DNA of 64,000 nt from Minisyncoccota bacterium (GCA_031291875.1 JARLIE010000183.1:65356-129355), one strand, 5' to 3'. Shown: positions 11,414-22,174, counted from the stretch's first letter. The notes: generated from the letters alone by a model not told the origin. Program-made: numbers and translations.

Positions 11414-11842
11414 TCAACCGCGCGGCACGAACGGCAAGGAAGCGCTCTGCTGGCTGCAAAGATTGTTCCAACTGCTGTTGTTGGTGAGGGCCGACATTAT
11501 GACGCTCACAATGATCCAGGCCGAGATGATGAGTACAAGGCCTCCGGTTACATATTTGAAGATATTCTTGGCTCGTTTGACCTGGGCGGCATTGCCGCTC
11601 GATGAACCCACGACCAGCTGCCAGCCGGCCCAGGCGAAAAGGATCGCCGAGAGGAAAATGGCAACGAAAATGCCGTCATTGAGGAGGTTTTGGGCAAGTG
11701 TTGCGAGGTCGCAAATCGACTGACAGCCACCCGGCTGATTGCAATCAGACGGGACAACCTGCTGCAACCCGAGCGCCGAGGCGGCAAACGGTGCCAACAT
11801 GACGAGCGTCATGAGAGTCGCGATCATGGCCCTTCTCTTCAT
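11414..11842 (-). CDS. TrbC/VirB2-like pilin (CPR type)
   Basis: Signal peptide, Cys-containing loop, two TM helices joined by GNAAQVKRAKNIF. Confidence 0.7.
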   Translation of the reverse strand: MKRRAMIATLMTLVMLAPFAASALGLQQVVPSDCNQPGGCQSICDLATLAQNLLNDGIFVAIFLSAILFAWAGWQLVVGSSSGNAAQVKRAKNIFKYVTGGLVLIISAWIIVSVIMSALTNNSSWNNLCSQQSASLPFVPRG

Positions 11843-11897: not shown

Positions 11898-11980
11898 GCG
11901 TCGGTGGCGGAGTGGTCAAACGCACTTGGCTGTAAACCAAGCGGCTTCGGTCTACGCAGGTTCGAATCCTGCCCGGCGCA
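11898..11980 (+). tRNA. tRNA-Tyr(GTA)
   Basis: GCGTCGGTGGCGGAGTGGTCAAACGCACTTGGCTGTAAACCAAG...GGTTCGAATCCTGCCCGGCGCA. Confidence 0.95.
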
Positions 11981-12145
11981 CAAAATGCCAAAACCCGAGC
12001 ATGTCTCGGGTTTTGTGCGATTTTGTAGCTGCCGGGCAGGATTCGAAAGACGGAGGCGGGGGTCCCCGCAAGCTTGCGGGGCGCCGAGTCGGGGTCGCGG
12101 AATTTTCTTTGCTGGTAAAGAAAATATCCGTGACCGAATGCTCCC
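11981..12145 (+). repeat. tRNA-3'-anchored structured element, copy 1
   Basis: Shares a 27-nt identical core and TATCCGTGACCGA with 21662..21828. Positions 12031..12047 are the exact reverse complement of tRNA-Tyr 11961..11977. Confidence 0.85.
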
Positions 12146-12237
12146 CAAGCAGCGCTAAAAATGAGAATGATACAAATGGAGAGAACTAAAGAAAAGCCGC
12201 CTAGCTAAGGGCGGCTAATCTTTTTGTTTTAGAGCGT

Positions 12238-14925
12238 CTATACCCGAGCGGCAGCACGAGCACGCACACTGCGCTCTCGCGCCGGGCCCTTGCGAACGTC
12301 GAACGAAAATTCGTCGTTCTTCCAGTCGACGGAGATCGCTCCCCCTTCGAGGACACCTCGGGCGACCATCATATTGGCGACAGGCGTGAGAATCTTGGTT
12401 TGAATCAAGCGCTTCAAGGGACGTGCGCCGTACTGCGGGTTGTAGCCTTCCTTGGCGAGCTGCTCGATGGAGGCATCGCTGAAGCTGAGTGTGATCTGCT
12501 TTTCTTCGAGACGCTTCGCAACGATGTCGGTCTGCATGCGAACGATATCGAGAATCGCTTCGTGCGAGAGAATATTGAAGAGGATGGTGTCGTCCAGACG
12601 ATTGAGGAATTCCGGACGGAAGTACTCTTTGAGCGAATCGGTGACTTTGTTCTTCACCTGCTCGTAGCGCTCACCTTCCGAAACACTCGCACCGCTTGCG
12701 AATCCCAGACCGGACATCTTGTCGATGTGTTCCGCGCCAATGTTCGAGGTCATGATGATGACACAATTCTTGAAGTTGACTGTGCGGCCCTTGGCGTCTG
12801 TCAGACGGCCATTGTCGAGAACCTGCAGCAAGATATTGAAGACTTCCGGGTGCGCCTTTTCGATTTCATCGAAGAGGATGACCGAGTACGGGCGGTGTCG
12901 CACAAGTTCGGTGAGCCCGCCGCCTTCGTCGTAGCCGACATACCCAGGCGGTGAGCCGATCATCTTCGAAACCGAGTGCTTCTCCATGTATTCGGACATG
13001 TCGACTCGAATGAGCGATTTGTCGCTATTGAAGAGGAATTCCGCAAGTGCGCGGGTGAGCTCCGTCTTGCCGACGCCGGTGGGGCCGAGGAAGAGGAACG
13101 AGCCGACCGGACGATTCGGGTCTGAGATGCCTGCACGAGAGCGCTTGATTGCATCGGAAACTTTCTGCACCGCCTCGTCTTGACCGACAATACGCTTCCT
13201 GAGCTCCTCTTCCATACGGGAAAGTTTCTCCGCTTCTTCTTCGAGCATGCGGGAGACCGGGACACCCGTCCAGCGCGAAACCACGCCGGCGATATCCTCG
13301 GCAGTGATCTCCTCCTTGAGCACGCGCCTCGTAGTTTGGAGCTTCTTCAGACGCTTGGTTGCCGTTTCGATATCTCGTTCCAAATTCGGGATACTCCCGT
13401 AGCGGATTTCAGCGGTCTTGGTTAGATCGCCCATGCTCTCGGCGGTGTCGGCGTCGATACGAGCCTGTTCGAGCTCGCCCTTTGCCTTCTTGATCTCGGC
13501 GAGGGTCTCCTTCTCATTCTTCCATTTCATTTCGAGCTCGCGGGTGGAGTCGCGCAAGTCGGCGATCTCCTTTTCGATCGATTGTACGCGCGTCAAAGCC
13601 TTCTCGACACCTTCGTCGGCTTCTTTCTTGAGTGCTTCCTTTTCAATCTCCAAGCGAGTGATTTGGCGGTGGGCATCTTCGAGTTGCGGTGGCATATTCT
13701 CGAGCGAGAGGCGGAGCGCAGAAGCGGCTTCGTCGATAAGGTCGATCGCTTTGTCCGGCAAAAAACGCTCCGTGATGTAGCGAGAGGAAAGCTGAACCGC
13801 CGAAACCATCGCGTCGTCAGTGATATGTACGCCGTGGTAGAGCTCGTAGCGCTCCTTGAGGCCGCGCAAAATAGCGACCGCGTCTTCGATTGAGGGTTCG
13901 TTTACGTAGACCGGCTGGAAGCGGCGCGTGAGCGCTGCATCGTGCTCGATGTGCTTTTGATATTCCTTGAGGGTGGTCGCGCCGATGACGCGGATCTCGC
14001 CACGCGCGAGCGCAGGCTTCAGCATATTGGATGCGTCCATAGAGCCTTCAGCGGCTCCGGCGCCAACGAGCGTGTGGATTTCGTCGATAAAGAGGATGAT
14101 CTTGCCTTCCGAGCGTTCGACTTCGCGCATAACAGCCTTGAGTCGCTCTTCGAACTCGCCGCGATACTTTGTACCGGCGATGAGGAGGCCGAGGTCGAGC
14201 TGCACGAGCTCTTTGCCACGCAATGACTCAGGAACGTCGCCCGCTGCCATTCTCGAGGCGAGACCTTCCGCGACGGCCGTCTTACCGACGCCAGCTTCTC
14301 CGATCAAGATCGGGTTGTTCTTGGTGCGTCTGGAGAGAATCTGAATGACGCGTGTAATTTCGGTATCACGACCGATAACCGGGTCGAGCTTGTTCTCGCG
14401 GGCGCGTTCGGTAAGGGAGCGCGCGAAGCGCGCGAGGGCTCGCGGTTTCGAAGAAGATTCCGCGTCGCGGATCTTCCCCTCTTTGATGTCGGTGAGAATG
14501 CGCGCGAGCGCAGTGCGGTCGATGCGGTAGCGAGCAAGCAGTTCTGAAGCCGGGCCCGGGTGTTCCGCAACCGCAAGCAGCAAGTGCTCGGGAGATACAA
14601 ACTGATCATTGAACGACGCCGAAATTCTCGGAGCCGCCTCGAACACGCGGACCAATTCCGGCGTTAGGTAGAGCTGAAAACTCGGAGAAACTGCCGTCGC
14701 GCCGCTTGATCCTTCGATCATTTCGAGTACGGAATCTGTCAGATGCGCGGTGTCGACCTCGACTTGTTCGAGCATCGGCAACACCATCGACTCCTCTTGC
14801 ATGAGGAGCGCCGCCAAAAGATGCAGCGTCGACACCTGATTATGGCCGCGTTCGACAGCAAGTTGATGCGCGCGATGCACGGCCTCTTTTGCCTTCGTTG
14901 TGTAGTTGTTGAAAGGGGTTGCCAT
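12238..14925 (-). CDS. clpB: ATP-dependent chaperone ClpB
   Basis: Two AAA+ modules ([16 protein letters not shown]), a long coiled-coil M domain and GARPLKR. Confidence 0.95.
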
Positions 14926-14982
14926 TGATTTGGATTATACCATTAATTCTGATTTCGTAAAACTTAGGGCTAATAAAGGTCG

Positions 14983-15780
14983 TTACTTTTGAGTGGATAT
15001 AAGACTGGCGGGGACAAATCCCGAGGGTGATGACGTCCGCGAGACACCTGTGCTTACGCCGACGATATTCGCAGTTGAATCGATAATGACCGAACCAGGC
15101 TGTATTGCCGATGAATCTATGTCGGTGACGATAGCCTCCGGGAATTGAGTGCTTGAATCCGCTGGCATGATTTCGGTGACGAGGCCCTGCGAGATCCGTA
15201 CCGTACTGATCCCTTCTATCGCGATAACGAGCTGGCCGAGTACCGGCGCGTTTGCCGCCTTTTGTGCCGGCGTCCAGGTCATAGCCGGGCTCGATGTGGT
15301 CGCGGGCGAGAGGTACAAAAGTCCAGAGGAAGGATCGCGAGAGATCACGAATGCTCGGATCTTTGCCCCATCTTGTGTCTGGACGATAGCACTCGCCTGA
15401 TCGCCGAGAGAGTGTATGTCGGCGGCGATCGTGCCTGAGGCGTTGGTTACAACGCCGAGACCTTCAAACTGCGGTTGGTCGTCGAGCGAGTAAATGCGCA
15501 CGATAGAGGGAGAGATCTGCTTAACCGCTTGTGCGATCTGATCCGCTTCATTGACGATCACCGTCTTTTGCGTCGTTGCGGCGGATGCCGTCTGACTCTT
15601 GCTCGAGGTCGCGACCGTTTCGATCGTATTTTCTATCACTCGATTGACCGTTTCTGCGATCGCGGGCGGCGCCTGCTGCATCAAGGAGACAGTGACGATG
15701 CCGGTTGCGATCGAGGTAACGAAGCTGACGAGCAGAGTCAAGAGGACGATCTGGGATTTTGTCAGCTTCTCGATGTCCAT
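14983..15780 (-). CDS. Membrane-anchored HtrA/S1C trypsin-like protein, catalytic motifs degenerate
   Basis: N-terminal TM, AVKQISPSIVRI, GLGVV, IVTD..IQPGS, IVGV. Lacks GNSGG. Confidence 0.65.
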   Translation of the reverse strand: MDIEKLTKSQIVLLTLLVSFVTSIATGIVTVSLMQQAPPAIAETVNRVIENTIETVATSSKSQTASAATTQKTVIVNEADQIAQAVKQISPSIVRIYSLDDQPQFEGLGVVTNASGTIAADIHSLGDQASAIVQTQDGAKIRAFVISRDPSSGLLYLSPATTSSPAMTWTPAQKAANAPVLGQLVIAIEGISTVRISQGLVTEIMPADSSTQFPEAIVTDIDSSAIQPGSVIIDSTANIVGVSTGVSRTSSPSGFVPASLISTQK

Positions 15781-16997
15781 GCGGGCACTATAGCATGAGA
15801 CAAAAGTCGTGAAAAAGTCTCTCGAAAGTGAGTAATTTCTTTTCGTGTCGTCGCGCGTCCGAGCGAAATTCGGAGCGTGTTTTCTGCTCGCCAAAGCTCT
15901 GCGCCAAGCGCTTCTACGACATGTGAGGCTTTTTGTCCTTCGTTGCAGGCGCTCTTTGTTGATACGGCGAAGCCCTCATGGTCGAGCGCAAGCGTTAGAT
16001 ACTCGGAATGTATGTCCGGAATGGAGATGTTGAGCATGTGTGGCAGGGCGTGCTTAAGATCTCCATTGATAACAAGTCCTGGAGTATTCTCGGAGAGCTC
16101 ACGTGCAAGCGCATCTCGAAGCGTTTTGAGTCGCTTGGATTCGTCGTGACGCTCCCTTGCGACAAGCTCAAACGCCGCGGCAAAACCGACAGCCAGTGCG
16201 ACATTCTCCGTGCCGGCTCGCAACTCTCGCTCCTGCTTGCCTCCAAGCACGACTCCGGCAACGTTGGTGCGATTCGAAAGATATAAACAACCGACTCCGT
16301 GTGGTCCGTACAATTTCGACGCGCTGATTGAAAGCAGGTCAACCCCGAGCGAGTGTGCAACAGTCGGCTCGTACAGCGGCGCTTGCCCGGCATCCGCGTG
16401 GAAAATAACCCGCGTTCCGTGCTTTTCTTCGTGCAACCGGATCGCCTGCGCGATTTTACCCAGAGGCTGCACACTACCGATCTCGTTGTTTGCCCAGCCG
16501 ACCGAAACGAAAACGGTTTCAGGTTTCAAGACAGCGACAATCGACTCCGGGGTAATGATCCCCTTTTCGTTCGGCGAAACATGCGTAACAGAGCCGCCGA
16601 GTCGTTCTATTTCAGAGAAACACTCAAGCACCGACGAGTGTTCGATCGCGCTCACGATCCAATGGGTTCCATCGAGCGAACCGGACAGGGTCCGACCTTG
16701 TCCGCTAAAACCATCGACGAGCATTCGACGCGCGAATCCGACAATAGCCAGATTATTTGCCTCCGTAAGCCCCGATGTAAAAACGAGCTCGCGTGCCTTG
16801 ACCCCAAGCAACAGGGCGATCCGTTCGCGAGCGTCATTGAGCGCGTTCTTTGCAGCAACGGCTTCCGCGTGAATAGCGCCGGGGTTGCCGACCAGCTTCT
16901 CGGCTTCGCGCATCGCCTCAGCTGCTTCGTGCAAAAGAGGGGTCGCGCTCGCGTGATCCAAATACACTCGTGCGGGAGACGACTTTGAAAACCACAT
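15762..16997 (-). CDS. iscS: Cysteine desulfurase (IscS/NifS family)
   Basis: Motifs YLDHASATP, FTSGLTEANN, SASKLYGP (PLP Lys), RAGTENV, STKSAC (catalytic Cys). Start ATG at 16997. Confidence 0.9.
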   Translation of the reverse strand: MWFSKSSPARVYLDHASATPLLHEAAEAMREAEKLVGNPGAIHAEAVAAKNALNDARERIALLLGVKARELVFTSGLTEANNLAIVGFARRMLVDGFSGQGRTLSGSLDGTHWIVSAIEHSSVLECFSEIERLGGSVTHVSPNEKGIITPESIVAVLKPETVFVSVGWANNEIGSVQPLGKIAQAIRLHEEKHGTRVIFHADAGQAPLYEPTVAHSLGVDLLSISASKLYGPHGVGCLYLSNRTNVAGVVLGGKQERELRAGTENVALAVGFAAAFELVARERHDESKRLKTLRDALARELSENTPGLVINGDLKHALPHMLNISIPDIHSEYLTLALDHEGFAVSTKSACNEGQKASHVVEALGAELWRAENTLRISLGRATTRKEITHFRETFSRLLSHAIVPAWTSRS

Positions 16998-17082
16998 AGA
17001 ATGAGTATACTGTTTTTCGTCAAGCCGCCTACTGCGTCCTTCGAAAGCGTTAGCCAAAAAGGATGGCCGACTATGCAACCCT

Positions 17083-18591
17083 ATGACCTCAGCCAAACCA
17101 CAACAAGAAGCAGAGCGTCCGCCCGTCGTGGCGGTTTTAGGACACGTCGACCACGGTAAATCGACGTTGCTGGATTTCATCCGCAAATCGAGCACCGTCG
17201 CAAAGGAAGCGGGAGGCATCACTCAAAAGATCGCCGCCTACGAGATTGAGCGTGAGCGTGAAGGCAAGAATAAGAAAATCACGTTTATCGATACCCCAGG
17301 CCATGCTGCCTTCCAGGCCATCCGCAGACGCGGCGCTTCCGTCGCGGATATCGCGATTTTGGTCGTCGCCGCCGATGACGGTGTCATGGCGCAGACGCTC
17401 GAAGCCCTCCAGGAGATTCGCGACGCCAAGATCCCCTTCATCGTCGCGATCAATAAGATCGACAAACCAAACGCGGACCTGCAGCGCACCGTCTCTTCCC
17501 TCCTCGAACAAAACGTCTTCCTTGAGAAATACGGGGGCGACGTACCCTGGGTCGCGATCTCCGCGAAGCAAGGCACGGGCGTCGACGAACTCCTCGACCT
17601 GGTCTTGTTAGTCGCCGAGTTACAGGAGCTCACGGGAGATGCATCAGTCCCAGCGGAAGGGTATGTCATCGAAGCGCACCGCGACCAAAAGCGCGGCATG
17701 GCGGCAACGCTTATTATCAAGAATGGCTCGCTCAAAAGCGGTATGTTTGTGCTCGCTGGCACGGCGCTCTCGCCGGTGCGAATCATGGAGAACTTTGCCG
17801 GCAAACAAATCAAGGAAGCTAGTTTCTCTTCTCCGGTTCAGCTGATCGGCTTCGACGAGTTGCCAGAGGTCGGCAGCGCGTTCCACACCAGCGAGAAGAA
17901 AAAAGATGCCGAAACAGCACAGGAAGAAGCTCGCACGGCGCGCCCCAAACAAAACACGGTTTCCTCCGAGGCCAACCCGCAGCGCTTCTTAATGCCGCTT
18001 ATCATCCGAGTCGACACGCAAGGCTCGCTCGATGCGCTCCTCTTTGAACTTGCGAAAATCGGCGATGAATTCTCTGGCGTCAAAGTAGTTTCCGCTGGCA
18101 TTGGCACTATTTCCGAAAGCGACATCAAGACGGCGATCGCCTCCAAAGAACCGGCGACGGTGCTTGGCTTTAACGTCGGTATCGACTCGGTCGCACAAAC
18201 ACTAGCCGATCGCGACGGCATACGTGTCCAAACGTACGACATCATTTATAAACTCAGCGAAGGACTTACCGAGCTTTTGCAACAAACGAGGCCAAAGCGC
18301 TCGATCGAAGAGGTTGTCGGCAAGGCAAAAGTGCTCAAACAATTCTCAAGTCGTAAAGACGAGCACGTGATCGGCGGCGGCGTTACGAGCGGCTATATCG
18401 CGAAGAACGGTACGGTTCGCGTGCTTCGCCGCAACCTTTCGCTCGGCACCGGAAAAGTAACCAACCTTCAAAAGAACAAGCAGGACGTCGATCGAGCCCA
18501 GGAAGGCTCTGAATTCGGCGCGCAGATCGTTGCCGATTTCGAAATCGCACCGGGCGATGTGCTCGAATGTATCGTGACAAGAGTCGAATAG
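17083..18591 (+). CDS. infB: Translation initiation factor IF-2, short form without the N-terminal extension
   Basis: Motifs GHVDHGKST, GGITQ, DTPGH, NKID. Confidence 0.96.
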   Translation: MTSAKPQQEAERPPVVAVLGHVDHGKSTLLDFIRKSSTVAKEAGGITQKIAAYEIEREREGKNKKITFIDTPGHAAFQAIRRRGASVADIAILVVAADDGVMAQTLEALQEIRDAKIPFIVAINKIDKPNADLQRTVSSLLEQNVFLEKYGGDVPWVAISAKQGTGVDELLDLVLLVAELQELTGDASVPAEGYVIEAHRDQKRGMAATLIIKNGSLKSGMFVLAGTALSPVRIMENFAGKQIKEASFSSPVQLIGFDELPEVGSAFHTSEKKKDAETAQEEARTARPKQNTVSSEANPQRFLMPLIIRVDTQGSLDALLFELAKIGDEFSGVKVVSAGIGTISESDIKTAIASKEPATVLGFNVGIDSVAQTLADRDGIRVQTYDIIYKLSEGLTELLQQTRPKRSIEEVVGKAKVLKQFSSRKDEHVIGGGVTSGYIAKNGTVRVLRRNLSLGTGKVTNLQKNKQDVDRAQEGSEFGAQIVADFEIAPGDVLECIVTRVE

Positions 18592-18593
18592 CT

Positions 18594-18914
18594 ATGGTAC
18601 GCAGACCTGAACAAGCAAACGAATCCATCGCGCATTTGGCAGCGCAATTTTTAGCGCGTGAGTCGAACCACGAATCCTTGATTACGGTGACTCGTTCCGA
18701 AATGTCGCCTAATTACAAAAACGTGACCGTATTTCTTTCCATTTTGCCGATCGAGCAAAGCGAAAAGGCACTCGCCTTCGCGAAGCGCCTGCGAAGCGAC
18801 TTTCGCCAGTACTTGAAACAAAAAACCGCATTGCACCCGATTCCGACCGTCGATTTCGAAATCGATTTCGGCGAGCTGAATCGCCAGCGCGTCGACGAAC
18901 TCACCCGCAAGTAG
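18594..18914 (+). CDS. rbfA: Ribosome-binding factor A
   Basis: Follows infB. LITVTRSEMSP...IPTVDFEID...RVDEL matches the RbfA pattern. Confidence 0.85.
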   Translation: MVRRPEQANESIAHLAAQFLARESNHESLITVTRSEMSPNYKNVTVFLSILPIEQSEKALAFAKRLRSDFRQYLKQKTALHPIPTVDFEIDFGELNRQRVDELTRK

Positions 18915-18963
18915 GTGTTAATAACAAACGTGCCTTTCTCTTCAAAGCGGCTATAGTTGCCGG

Positions 18964-19776
18964 ATGCACGAGTCGATGAATACCAAGGGCAACATGCCCC
19001 CACGCATCGACGAACAGGCCGATTATTTCACTCGCTTGGGTGTGGCTCGCGGAGCATCGCGCAAAGAGATTGAAACCGCCTTTCGAAACCTATCAAAGGA
19101 ATTTCACCCGGATGCCGGGGGTGACGAGGAAAAAATGAAACTCATCAGCGAGGCATGGTCCGGGCTTAAGGACGATGCCAAACGTGCTGCATACGCAAGA
19201 GAACTGGACGGAATCGAGGCTACAGCCCGATCCTCACAAGAAAGTGCCTATGCTGATGTCAAAGGAATGCGCGAACAATTCGGTAGCCCTCGCGAAGAAG
19301 CGACGGAGGCCGTGAATGCGACGGATGAACAACCAGATGCAGCTCCAGAAAAGCTGGACGAAGAGAGCATGCAGGACAAACTCGATGAATTCGCTCGCGG
19401 GCGCGGATACAAAGATTTTGAAAGTTATATCCGCTCAGACGAAGCGCCACGAGAAACTTCTTCGTCGCGCGAGAACATGACTACCCGAGAACATCTCGAT
19501 CACGAGTACGAAAAGGTTCGAGATTCGATGGATCGCCTGGGCATGCAGGCCAAAATCACCTGTTTTGCGATTTTATATAACACCTTCATCTTGCCCTTTA
19601 AACCTATTGAACACGGCAAGGGAAAAGAAAAAAAGAAAGTATTCGATCCGGCGACGCAGGTGCTTGCGGGCGCTATTGATTCCACGTACGCCGTCGGCCT
19701 CTTAGCGATGCGGGTCCTTATGACAGCCGGCCGCATTACCCTCTTTGGTATTTCAAGACTTAAAACACAACAGTAA
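18964..19776 (+). CDS. DnaJ (J-domain) protein with C-terminal hydrophobic region
   Basis: DYFTRLGV...EIETAFRNLSKEFHPD...ISEAWSGLKD...RAAY. Confidence 0.85.
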   Translation: MHESMNTKGNMPPRIDEQADYFTRLGVARGASRKEIETAFRNLSKEFHPDAGGDEEKMKLISEAWSGLKDDAKRAAYARELDGIEATARSSQESAYADVKGMREQFGSPREEATEAVNATDEQPDAAPEKLDEESMQDKLDEFARGRGYKDFESYIRSDEAPRETSSSRENMTTREHLDHEYEKVRDSMDRLGMQAKITCFAILYNTFILPFKPIEHGKGKEKKKVFDPATQVLAGAIDSTYAVGLLAMRVLMTAGRITLFGISRLKTQQ

Positions 19777-19777
19777 T

Positions 19778-20032
19778 ATGACCGACGAACAGCACGACCT
19801 CGATGCACAAGATGCAGAAGCAATCCTCGCCCGCAAAGAGGATTTTCTCCGGGTAAATTCGCAAATCGACGAGGCTATCCAAGACGGGCAACGCAAGCTC
19901 GCCGCGCTTCGAGAATATTTTGCGACGACCGGCGAATCCCCCGAGGCGTTCGCAAGCAGTGCCAAAAAGATTCAAGCAGAAATCGCACAGCGTCTGCAGG
20001 CGATCGAGACGCAGGCTACCAAGCTGCGCTAA
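19778..20032 (+). CDS. Hypothetical helical/coiled-coil protein, 84 aa
   Basis: ATG sits 1 nt after the J-domain gene stop. Amphipathic helical composition. Confidence 0.6.
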   Translation: MTDEQHDLDAQDAEAILARKEDFLRVNSQIDEAIQDGQRKLAALREYFATTGESPEAFASSAKKIQAEIAQRLQAIETQATKLR

Positions 20033-20034
20033 AG

Positions 20035-20110
20035 TGGAGGCCACAGTGGGAGTTGCACCCACCCAATAGCGGTTTTGCAGACCGCCGCGTTGCTACTTCG
20101 CCATGTGGCC
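20035..20110 (-). tRNA. tRNA-Cys(GCA)
   Basis: Reverse complement GGCCACATGGCGAAGTAGCAACGCGGCGGTCTGCAAAACCGC...GGGTGCAACTCCCACTGTGGCCTCCA. Confidence 0.9.
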
Positions 20111-20153
20111 GACGGTGTTAATGTAGCATGAATTAACGTAATATATCGATACC

Positions 20154-20238
20154 GCCGGGATGATGGAATGGTAGACATAGGGGACTTAAAATCCCCAGAC
20201 CGTAACAGGTCGTGAGAGTTCGAGTCTCTCTCCCGGCA
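20154..20238 (+). tRNA. tRNA-Leu(TAA)
   Basis: GCCGGGATGATGGAATGGTAGACATAGGGGACTTAAAATCCCC...GTTCGAGTCTCTCTCCCGGCA. Confidence 0.95.
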
Positions 20239-20274
20239 AAAAAGATGCGACCCGAATGGGTCGCATCATGGAGA

Positions 20275-20910
20275 TCACACCACAGGCTGAAGAGGACGCG
20301 GCTGTTCGATCAGGGCTCCGTACTTCGGCAGAAATACGGTCTGCTGGAACGCCTCGAAACGAGCGAGATATTCCCCGCTCTCCTCGTACTTGATCACGAG
20401 AATGGGCAGGTTGAGCATCTTGCGCGTGTGGTTAAGGAAGAGCCGTGCCGTGCGGCTATTCATCTCCCAGAACGGGCTGATGCACAGCAGCATATCGTGC
20501 GCATACTGCGCGAGGGCGGCTCGCTCGGCTTCCGGATTGGCTTTCAGTCGTTCGACGCCACTTTTGATTTCAGCGTCGAGTTCGGCAACTAGCTGACGAA
20601 CGTGCGAACCGTGTGGAATCTTTTTGGCTGCCGCGTCTCGCCCGGTGCGGAACCAATTATTGCGCCTGCCGGTTAGGTCTGAATTGATGAGACCGACCGG
20701 ATTGAGTTGATGCGCATCGAGTAGCAGGATCTCCGCGATTTCGAGGTGACGTTTGATTTCCATGCTTTCCCAAACGCTGGGGTCGCTGAATTCGACGCTG
20801 GAAATCCGTGCACTATGCTCGACAAACTCTCGCACGGTATCCAAATCCTTCTTGCGCTGCTCGCGCAGTGCCGTCCTTTGCGCCTCAGTGAGATGCTTTG
20901 GCTGGAACAT
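20275..20910 (-). CDS. Fic/DOC-domain protein with degenerate active-site motif
   Basis: ISPFWEMNSRTARLFLN aligns to HPFxDGNGRxxR. Confidence 0.75.
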   Translation of the reverse strand: MFQPKHLTEAQRTALREQRKKDLDTVREFVEHSARISSVEFSDPSVWESMEIKRHLEIAEILLLDAHQLNPVGLINSDLTGRRNNWFRTGRDAAAKKIPHGSHVRQLVAELDAEIKSGVERLKANPEAERAALAQYAHDMLLCISPFWEMNSRTARLFLNHTRKMLNLPILVIKYEESGEYLARFEAFQQTVFLPKYGALIEQPRPLQPVV

Positions 20911-21024
20911 ATGCCGCTCCGTTGGTGGTTGTCCGCGGTGATAGTAGCAACTTGTCCGACATTTTCAAATCGCGAAAGTATTGTAGAATGCCGAGGTTCA
21001 TCGTATCGACACGACTGGACGTGA

Positions 21025-21097
21025 CCGCCCATAGCTCAGCTGGTAGAGCAGTCGCCTCTTAAGCGAACGGTCGTAGGTTCGAATCCTACTGGGCGGA
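21025..21097 (+). tRNA. tRNA-Lys(CTT)
   Basis: CCGCCCATAGCTCAGCTGGTAGAGCAGTCGCCTCTTAAGCGAACGGTCGTAGGTTCGAATCCTACTGGGCGGA. Confidence 0.93.
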
Positions 21098-21325
21098 CGA
21101 GTGAGTGAAATACAAATGCAGGCCTCAGTGCCTGCTTTTGTATTTCCGAGTGAGGAGACCCAGAACGAAGTAATGATAGAGCGGATGGGGGCATACCACC
21201 ACCGGCAACATTCTAAAAGTAGACATATCCCAAAACCATAGTCTGTCGCAACAGTATGCCTATAGTTACCCCGGCAGCATAGGTAACTTCAGCGGCCCTT
21301 CACCATTTTTCCTTACACTGCGCCG

Positions 21326-21499
21326 ATGAACGCCTATATAACGTACGGAGACAATCTTGATGAGCTGGTCCGCCAGCTTCGCGAAGAACTCTTTCACGAA
21401 GACGCTCAGGGCCTTAGTCGCTCACCCAAACCGCGTCCACGACGCAATCCGCTCGCACGAGAAGAAGCGATCGAAGAAGACTGCAGCAACTCCGATTAA
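21326..21499 (+). CDS. Putative 57-aa small protein
   Basis: MNAYITYGDNLDELVRQLREELFHEDAQ...; preceded by TACACT-N6-ATG, the same leaderless signature as the core genes. Confidence 0.45.
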   Translation: MNAYITYGDNLDELVRQLREELFHEDAQGLSRSPKPRPRRNPLAREEAIEEDCSNSD

Positions 21500-21579
21500 C
21501 GCTGCGATACCCTATTCACCAACGCGCCTCTTGCGAGAGACTATTTTCTATGCGATACAGCGGTACAATAGGAAACGCC

Positions 21580-21661
21580 GCTGGGGTGGCGAAATTGGTA
21601 GACGCACTAGGCTTAGGACCTAGCTCCGCAAGGAATGAGAGTTCGAGTCTCTCCCCCAGCA
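21580..21661 (+). tRNA. tRNA-Leu(TAG)
   Basis: GCTGGGGTGGCGAAATTGGTAGACGCACTAGGCTTAGGACCTAG...GTTCGAGTCTCTCCCCCAGCA. Confidence 0.95.
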
Positions 21662-21828
21662 CAAAAATAAGGAGACCGACGCATGTCGTCGGACGACTAT
21701 ATTTTTGTAACTGCGGGGAGAGGCTCGAAAGCCGGAGCCGGGGGTCCCCGCAAGCTTGCGGGGCGGCGAGGCGGGGTCGCGGAAATTTCAGAGCGACGGC
21801 GACGAAATTATCCGTGACCGAGTCTGTC
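21662..21828 (+). repeat. tRNA-3'-anchored structured element, copy 2
   Basis: Same architecture as 11981..12145. Positions 21715..21729 are complementary to tRNA-Leu 21642..21656 (14 Watson-Crick pairs plus one G-U). Confidence 0.85.
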
Positions 21829-21838
21829 TATCAAAAAA

Positions 21839-22174
21839 TTACTGCCCACTCTGAAAGAAGGTCACGCCAGGATTGACGTTAACACTCGTATTGGGATTGT
21901 AGTTGCCCGTGCCACTCGAATTCACGTTCACCCCGAAATTGAATGTGTTGTTGATCAGCGCGATGATACCGACCACCGAAAACATAATGACCATGCCGAC
22001 TACTCCCCAAATCATGTGCTGCTTACCCTCATCGGTGTGTCCGCCCTGGTTGAGCGCGAGCAAGAATTGTACAAGCCCCCAGATGAAGTAAAAGAATCCG
22101 AGCGCAGCGAGAATGAGGAGCGCAGGGTCGATGACGTAGGTAGTAAATCGTCCGACGACGTCTCCGACCGACAT
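21839..22174 (-). CDS. TrbC/VirB2-like pilin
   Basis: FFYFIWGLVQF...GKQHMIWGVVGMVIMFSVVGII two-TM pilin pattern. Confidence 0.75.
   Translation of the reverse strand: MSVGDVVGRFTTYVIDPALLILAALGFFYFIWGLVQFLLALNQGGHTDEGKQHMIWGVVGMVIMFSVVGIIALINNTFNFGVNVNSSGTGNYNPNTSVNVNPGVTFFQSGQ

Follow-up and report, generated by a model that had tools for sequence, protein, structure and literature searches.

The question that this locus raises is why two transfer RNA (tRNA) genes of one bacterium are followed by the same structured sequence, each time with an arm that can pair with its own tRNA. The window, a stretch of 64,000 nucleotides (nt) from a Minisyncoccota bacterium (GCA_031291875.1 JARLIE010000183.1:65356-129355), holds one copy behind tRNA-Tyr and one behind tRNA-Leu(TAG), both where the first-pass annotation had placed them. 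We find that they belong to a family that is real, is widespread within one order of the candidate phyla radiation (CPR) and lies outside every family tested. The copies are very probably a self-guided mobile element, whichever enzyme moves it. In the fuller reading that we favour, and hold to be rather probable, the element carries no gene, inserts at a junction that is fixed and lies close to a conserved gene's 3' end, brings a replacement for that gene end and, as a folded circle of single-stranded DNA, likely moves by means of an enzyme supplied in trans. This mechanism is inferred from sequence only. The parts of the two copies are as follows.

11898..11981, plus strand: tRNA-Tyr(GTA), whose last 19 bases would be a replacement end borne by the element
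11960..11963, plus strand: left junction of copy 1, G-TT^C in the T-loop, with G at -3; the cut would fall at 11962/11963
11963..12134, plus strand: whole element, copy 1, 172 nt
11980..12026, plus strand: hairpin 1 of copy 1, an A-run/T-run stem with GCATGTC as its apex (11999-12005); only its minus strand is terminator-like
12031..12047, plus strand: guide arm of copy 1, the reverse complement of 11961-11977; its final AA pairs with the TT 5' of the junction
12048..12090, plus strand: conserved body of copy 1, the left helix RGNCGSAG...GAGNC with a GGA/GA internal loop, enclosing hairpin 2 (27-nt core, 12057-12083)
12093..12135, plus strand: hairpin 3 of copy 1, GGTCGCGGA/TCYGTGAC; its foot is the right junction (after 12134)
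12135..12139, plus strand: displaced original end of tRNA-Tyr, decayed (CGAAT, 5 bases)
21580..21662, plus strand: tRNA-Leu(TAG), whose last 19 bases would likewise be a replacement end borne by the element
21641..21644, plus strand: left junction of copy 2, G-TT^C in the T-loop; the cut would fall at 21643/21644
21644..21818, plus strand: whole element, copy 2, 175 nt
21661..21708, plus strand: hairpin 1 of copy 2, apex GCATGTC at 21681-21687
21715..21729, plus strand: guide arm of copy 2, 14/15 plus a G-T pair to tRNA-Leu
21730..21772, plus strand: conserved left helix and hairpin 2 of copy 2 (27-nt core, 21739-21765)
21775..21819, plus strand: hairpin 3 of copy 2; right junction after 21818
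21819..21825, plus strand: displaced original end of tRNA-Leu, decayed (CGAGTCT, 7 bases)

The complementarity of each arm to the adjacent tRNA, which the first-pass annotation had described, was found again (17/17 to tRNA-Tyr, 14/15 and one G-T to tRNA-Leu), and the limits of the element had to be moved. It starts not at the end of the tRNA but at T-loop base C56 (11963 and 21644), and it ends not at 12145 and 21828 but with GTGAC (12134 and 21818), followed by a remnant direct repeat. This repeat, absent from the earlier layout, is decayed in both copies (CGAAT and CGAGTCT) and is the key to the mechanism. The 27-nt core is indeed identical in the two copies; across the family it is a variable hairpin and not the conserved part, and it occurs only these 2 times in the genome, even allowing up to 4 mismatches. 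The genome bin that contains the window (G000) measures 1.63 Mb, and its ten contigs above 20 kb total 0.86 Mb. Among the 46 tRNA and transfer-messenger RNA (tmRNA) genes on these ten contigs, the arm of copy 1 fits tRNA-Tyr best (15/15; next best Asn, 14) and that of copy 2 tRNA-Leu (14/15; next best Leu-TAA, 13), a margin of one base that is narrow because the T-loop is common to tRNAs. With the tRNA included, the folding z-scores are -8.6 for the Tyr copy and -6.3 for the Leu copy, and 0/200 shuffles folded equally well. Contigs from four public runs of one study, possibly the source sample, span both copies with no differences; therefore only an error specific to the window is excluded.

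The family was then defined by its body. A body profile finds 10 copies in G000, nine directly behind tRNAs (Tyr, Leu-TAG, Arg-CCT, Lys-TTT, Arg-GCG, Arg-TCT, Val-TAC, Ile-GAT and Asp-GTC) and one as a right half only. The strict body pattern occurs in 51/201 genomes of the order including G000 (50/200 of the others) with 0 matches for the reversed control, and in 0/246 genomes of the same phylum outside the order. GTDB genomes and metagenomes yield at least 122 loci each; the named carriers are nearly all Patescibacteria, and the relatives have genomes of 0.4-1.3 Mb, from which it follows that the host is a CPR bacterium; the order is one of ultra-small bacteria. The element measures 90-300 bases across the family, is gene-less and has a body of 60-100 nt. 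Of 180 distinct copies gathered on the body motif alone, 170 have sufficient flank; 115 of these have a tRNA or tmRNA within 260 bases on the same strand, and of the other 55 only 2 have one on the opposite strand. The first-pass annotation had proposed to test whether copies always abut tRNA 3' ends with arms matching the cognate tRNA. The match of the arm was borne out and the exclusive use of tRNAs was not: the 3' ends of topA (seven copies parsed) and, by flank translation, of rplL (L100) and probably dnaJ (L093, L458) are occupied as well, the latter two being genes that we take to be rplL and dnaJ from their C-terminal motifs. A single body is used for tRNAs of over 30 anticodon classes as well as for tmRNA, topA and rplL. 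The earlier idea of a tRNA-targeting non-autonomous mobile element is therefore kept as to the mobile element and dropped as to tRNA specificity.

The layout shared by these copies can be written as one rule. Behind a target that reads G-N-N, and after the junction (^), stand a replacement gene end (X'), hairpin 1, an arm that is the reverse complement of NN^X, the helix RGNCGSAG-hairpin 2-GAGNC, and GGGGTCGCGGAA-hairpin 3-TATCYGTGAC; after a second junction follows the original gene end (X). In relatives this direct copy of the gene end does stand after the body, and over the family the repeats are gene ends of 5-50 nt, many of them decayed as in the window. Among 102 parsed tRNA-linked copies, 84 have an arm of at least 8/10, and 71 of these 84 have a repeat of at least 6/8 at the junction that the arm predicts, against at most 1 at shifts of 1-4 bases. 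Two junction classes dominate, one in the T-loop (TT^CGA, TT^CAA; 63 copies) and one at the tRNA tip (21). The guide is 9-20 nt long and spans the cut. At the variable positions of the T-arm, 62 of the 63 T-loop copies fit their own tRNA better than others (4.7 vs 2.6 of 6), in agreement with the first-pass view of an arm that tracks its host tRNA like a programmable guide.

A junction chosen by the arm is circular as a test of the arm, and the test was rerun with only the downstream repeat setting the junction: of 276 distinct copies 205 could be parsed, and 72 of these have a repeat that matches at 13/16 or better. At position -2 the arm forms a Watson-Crick pair in 68/72 copies, at -1 in 69/72 and at 0 in 64/72; beyond this boundary it pairs with -3 in 1/72 and with -4 in 0/72. 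Five exceptions were listed, two of which are inner junctions of tandem units. When the junction is chosen by the arm, nine different target dinucleotides are found, each matched by its arm. Since the two arm bases covary in nine combinations with a target that lies 5' of the cut, pairing between element and target on the top strand is required, and the arm is likely a built-in guide for the moving enzyme. The base at -3 is identical in target and element end in 71/72 copies and is G in 54 of 57 junctions outside the T-loop; therefore the target reads GNN^ and the element end GAC^. In G000 all nine tRNA-linked copies obey the pairing at -2/-1 except a composite copy at Arg-TCT, whose left part comes from a sister family.

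Is the element mobile? Within the genus its presence is patchy, as the strict body stands behind 3/30 tRNA-Tyr and 4/27 tRNA-Leu(TAG) genes. The first-pass annotation had proposed to look for empty alleles in close relatives, and empty sites were found: over ~250 bases, the sequence that follows one filled site (L352) can be aligned with the trailer behind an empty one (L351), and it is therefore the downstream repeat that represents the original site. Where all 19 codons are comparable, in four topA copies, the upstream and the displaced gene end differ by 48 synonymous and 8 non-synonymous changes; the total over seven loci (62 vs 10) was set aside, as an adaptive stop favours synonymous counts. 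Such near-synonymous divergence indicates that both ends evolved as coding sequence, and hence that the element did not duplicate the target but carried in the gene end of another lineage. Three loci (L382 with 3 x 134 nt, L461 and L100) contain units repeated head to tail and joined internally by GTGAC^X', and such units match the predicted circle.

These observations bear on another function that had been proposed, namely a resident RNA trailer, or non-coding RNA, that regulates maturation or termination of the tRNA or shields it from integrases. The predicted fold of the pre-tRNA does sequester the 3' half of the tRNA, and an A-run/T-run hairpin 1 is present in 58/102 copies. Patchy presence, precise direct repeats, foreign replacement ends, protein-gene sites such as topA and rplL, and short tip-type arms that pair mostly with the trailer all argue against it; a plus-strand terminator pattern is found in the Leu copy only. 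A shield or decoy for tRNA attB sites, the other form of this proposal, is not supported either, as serine-recombinase islands still insert at occupied tRNAs. As a primary role the RNA trailer is largely refuted, and we consider it very unlikely.

The N:N' position of the body helix pairs in 115/117 copies with five pair types (the left motif being picked regardless of N), and the first inner pairs of hairpin 3 are paired in 272/275, with one position G-T in 156 and G-C in 119. In 17/48 TT^CGA arms GA stands in place of TC, so that tandem G.A pairs, which replace two Watson-Crick pairs, are possible on the plus strand only. The plus strand, which the first-pass annotation had favoured, folds better than the minus strand in 70/72 copies with RNA parameters and in 71/72 with DNA parameters; all these structure counts fit RNA and DNA alike, and the counts given here ignore kinship among copies. 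Integrase islands typically have direct repeats that derive from the T-loop, and many of ours are decayed, including both in the window, and the copies might thus be read as functionless attL/attR scars of such islands with chance palindrome correction. The near-perfect covariation of the body over 275 copies, the tandem G.A pairs and the sharp boundary at -2 need selection, and the copies lack integrase remnants; we regard this reading as refuted by the covariation seen and as scarcely credible.

The same element may instead be guided by RNA, in which case the transcribed arm would pair with target DNA for a recombinase or reverse transcriptase acting in trans, like a bridge RNA or a retro-element. 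G-T pairs, tandem G.A pairs and tetraloop-like loops fit RNA, and the orientation of the element is always that of the gene upstream of it (115 tRNA/tmRNA genes on its own strand vs 2 on the opposite one, as counted above). A related family (C) ends in a GTA mini-loop, which speaks for DNA, as GTA mini-loops are typical of stable DNA hairpins. Reverse transcriptases of G000 lie on two small contigs only, and the IS110 transposase domain occurs in just 11/201 genomes of the order and not in G000. None of 12 IS110 loci (0/12) has the element; in L370 a copy has one IS110 gene ~2 kb away, on the far side of a serine recombinase. In IS621 the bridge RNA's right target guide likewise pairs with top-strand bases to either side of the cut (PMC11208158). 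Yet IS621 strand exchange is blocked by cognate pairing beside the cut (PMC11208158), whereas the arm of our element pairs with its cognate target, and no second, bottom-strand guide is seen by eye. An RNA guide is, in our judgement, unlikely. The version with a DNA guide, in which a single-stranded DNA element is moved in trans, is the one that we consider probable.

Which enzyme could move such a single strand? As a tentative choice, somewhat short of even chances, we name the class of HUH (Y1-like) single-strand transferases. Besides the limits of the structural counts, several points weigh against this and against the single-stranded reading as a whole. No nuclease or recombinase family was found to recur at distances of up to 1.3 kb from 276 copies or up to 4 kb from 75 loci, and the first-pass suggestion of a co-occurring transposase, recombinase or reverse transcriptase led to no recurring linked enzyme. 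The Y1_Tnp domain is not enriched in carriers (29/51 element-bearing genomes vs 121/201 overall), 0/29 Y1 loci have the element, and the only Y1 match of G000 lies not on one of the ten large contigs but on a contig of 1.3 kb. In the contigs of the four runs, from which rare forms drop out, neither a circle nor an excision joint was seen, and the tandem units could also arise by unequal crossing between X' and X. Transposition on the lagging strand predicts a replication-strand bias, and none was seen with GC skew as proxy (39/65 vs 82/136), a proxy that is weak on short contigs. The common loops yGNCGr and nAGNAn, together with the G-T pairs, suit RNA equally to DNA, and 18/102 tRNA-linked copies have a weak arm. 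Finally, in one class of copies a plain hairpin replaces X' and the arm (L126, L218, L417, L465, L416, L478, L201 and L481); these stand behind a 5' fragment of a tRNA (D-loop for tRNA-Ser, T-loop for tRNA-Val/Glu) with an intact tRNA downstream.

The Y1 genes have short flanking repeats of their own. CPR Y1 genes of ~225 amino acids (L161-L177) are flanked by short tandem GGGGTCAG-type repeats and are REPtron-like. One broken copy of the element (G000:C100:87969-88966) has its right half 950 bases behind tRNA-Val(GAC), with an orphan open reading frame (ORF) of 228 amino acids between. As a candidate enzyme this ORF was rejected: it has no Pfam match, no confident atlas match and 16 other homologues, and its sole relative among 115 genomes of the genus comes without the element.

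The only recombinases on the large contigs of G000 are an Xer-like tyrosine recombinase (C202) and serine recombinases, and these could act if the folded strand rebuilt a duplex attachment site from X' and the arm, as for XerC with CTXphi. Serine recombinases occur in 138/201 genomes of the order with insertion positions similar to those of the element; their islands have ends at identical positions, in the T-loop or at the tip (L286, L288), and element bodies are found inside the structured non-coding ends of serine-recombinase elements (L370, L394, L437, L228), which are a possible vehicle for body transfer. Against such a rebuilt site, the targets have one G in common, which is insufficient for recognition by a protein, and a duplex has no need of two covarying arm bases 5' of the cut. 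Cleavage by serine recombinases affects both strands and would excise the body from the folded strand. As an autonomous form of the element the islands were rejected, since 0/20 serine-recombinase regions end in the body; where both occur, the island lies between the tRNA and the displaced element (clearly in L288, presumably in L047, L210 and L215). CTXphi itself, an integrative mobile element exploiting Xer (IMEX), integrates by one strand exchange through an attP in which a single strand, by folding back over ~150 bases, forms a duplex site (PMC5357621). We find the rebuilt attachment site decidedly improbable for our element.

The serine-recombinase islands have features of their own. Genes of large serine recombinases extend in antisense orientation into the 3' ends of tRNAs (L255-L284, L263, L370, L437, L394, L228, L047; G000:C100:76444-78082), and the other arm of these islands has a T-loop mimic (GGTTCGAGC) and a conserved structured region (a CCCGCCCATTCAA hairpin and a GCCACCACGC.CGCGGAGCG hairpin). 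Close relatives of these islands occupy different tRNAs. At one locus (L391) two inverted bodies enclose two restriction-modification-like genes beside a serine recombinase.

The element can be compared with several known systems. Integrase elements at tRNA and tmRNA 3' ends restore the gene with their own 3' fragment and displace the original, and for tRNAs the integrases follow a scheme of T-loop and 3'-tip sub-sites. Our element resembles such islands in its attL/attR-like ends and in the replacement and displaced 3' gene fragments, also seen here in the serine-recombinase islands; it differs in having no tyrosine or serine recombinase gene and in an antisense arm that covaries with each target. 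Terminal-inverted-repeat elements of the miniature inverted-repeat transposable element (MITE) type differ from it, as its left end is target-derived, its right end is GTGAC and its repeats are gene ends of 5-50 nt. Group I and II introns differ in that here there is no Rfam match, the body has 60-100 nt and the gene end is duplicated. The first-pass view that this is not a named family agrees with Rfam, which finds tRNAs only in the window; for 11950-12200 the best non-tRNA hit has E 0.032 and 15.6 bits against a threshold of 233.

The closest likeness is to the IS200/IS605 family, including IS608, and to repetitive extragenic palindromes (REP) with TnpA-REP: hairpins on the top strand, a guide directly 5' of the hairpin foot and no target-site sequence read by a protein (PMC5934647, PMC3479197, PMC6006769). 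In IS608, which passes through a single-stranded circle, the guide stands 5' of a hairpin and its pairing partners are bases 5' of the cut (PMC5934647); as far as sequence tells, the same pairing 5' of the cut, which defines an IS200/IS605 or REPtron guide, is present here, and the tandem junctions are compatible with a single-stranded circle. The element differs in that no TnpA lies in or near any copy, its guide of 9-20 nt spans the cut with no GTAG-type tetranucleotide, its targets are 3' ends of conserved genes, and it comes with a replacement gene end, a long direct repeat being left behind, whereas IS608 inserts without target duplication. The IMEX of CTXphi and integron attC share a folded single-strand site, yet they need sequences recognised by a protein (dif, GTT/AAC), whereas our element fixes one G and its target is variable. 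The bridge RNA of IS110 is a nucleic-acid guide that likewise covaries with the target around the crossover (PMC11208158); the element lacks a recombinase gene and the short core duplication, and by eye it shows top-strand pairing only, with no two-loop layout for target and donor or bottom-strand guides apparent. Strand-biased circularizing integrative elements (SE) share the idea of top-strand-biased circularisation, and are ~16 kb long with intA/tfp/intB/srap and restricted to Gammaproteobacteria (PMC10214605). A likeness to haloarchaeal tRNA-linked repeats was considered and found no support, PMC7002104 being irrelevant in its accessible part. No published description of the element was found in a full-text literature search, which most subscription papers lie outside; the accessible part of a 2026 preprint on intergenic clusters (10.64898/2026.10.21.760802) has no mention of Patescibacteria or CPR, and its supplements or database may hold the motif.

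A mechanism that fits the single-stranded DNA reading can be outlined, in which we infer the circle, the enzyme and the route of retargeting. Folded as circles, both window copies are predicted to form a three-way junction with two guide bases unpaired. Excision would join GTGAC to X' within this three-way junction; the arm would then exchange X' for a single-stranded target, its last two bases selecting the cut like the left guide of IS608, and one strand exchange followed by replication would give the filled site. The replacement end would preserve the tRNA or protein, making essential genes safe landing sites. Retargeting would likely begin when an element inserts where the match is partial; repair of X' and palindrome correction of the arm would then follow. 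Hairpin 1 of the Leu copy and a hairpin behind tRNA-Tyr in another genome (G008, L306) are identical in 47/56 alignment columns, against 40 identities for the Tyr copy of the window, which suggests that one lineage was retargeted between Tyr and Leu.

An insertion site set by 10-20 bases of internal pairing, with only the G at -3 fixed, points to a programmable strand-transfer enzyme not yet known. Engineered IS608 with extended pairing reaches targets of 12-17 nt with higher specificity (PMC5934647), and the element would be a natural counterpart of such a long-guide IS608. The junction rule offers a ready substrate design and a profile for the enzyme hunt. The element also accounts for tRNA-like fragments that confuse the annotation of CPR genomes, and it reveals that gene 3' ends, of topA and of tRNAs, are exchanged between lineages.

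The layout is not limited to one body. A T-loop arm occurs within 200 bases of 139/490 tRNA/tmRNA genes, against 5 in a control window 1 kb away; the 490 genes are drawn from element-enriched loci, and the control covers only sufficiently long loci. The repeat is also present in 97 of the 139, and 29 of these 97 have a body outside the strict family. At least 3 other, unrelated bodies recur with the same arm-plus-repeat layout and T-loop junction, one of them ending in an invariant CTGTAAG mini-hairpin (26 copies). Examples of sister-family loci are L346, L019, L187, L195, L322 and L331, as well as G000:C202:96175-96290 and, behind tRNA-Thr(GGT), C229.

Several candidate carriers were rejected. 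Two body patterns gave 0 matches in phages or viruses; 15 apparent virus matches collapse to 5 distinct sites, all without the element, and 16 virus matches for the sister families are chance-like among the matches listed. Named matches from outside the CPR (L022, L049, L051, L073, L085) miss the right end.

Some further observations were made along the way. The body occurs in GC-rich (54-65%) metagenomic contigs (L367, L368, L375, L399, L411, L418), possibly from a non-CPR host, with ORFs that are presumably succinyl-CoA synthetase-like and alanine racemase-like. The ~300 small contigs of G000 (0.77 Mb; e.g. C80, C135, C196, C230) hold additional tRNAs, integrases and reverse transcriptases as well as a Y1 transposase accompanied by hairpins of its own, and are probably foreign to the CPR genome, though its contamination is listed as 0.64%. 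At G000:C38:39316-39499 tRNA-Pro(CGG) and tRNA-Pro(GGG) stand in tandem with near-identical bodies. ARAGORN reports tRNAs with the anticodon TTA (stop) beside elements in L039 and L128. A short palindrome, CCTGCCTRCCGGCAGGCAGG, which is a second, smaller CPR repeat, lies inside repeats or hairpins of several copies (L040, L047, L113, an L150-type hairpin in L243, L196, L221). In the window itself, pilin-like ORFs (PF18895) at 11414-11830 and 21839-22174 flank both tRNA/element sites, and an ORF with a weak Fic domain (20275-20910) lies between tRNA-Leu(TAA) and tRNA-Lys(CTT).

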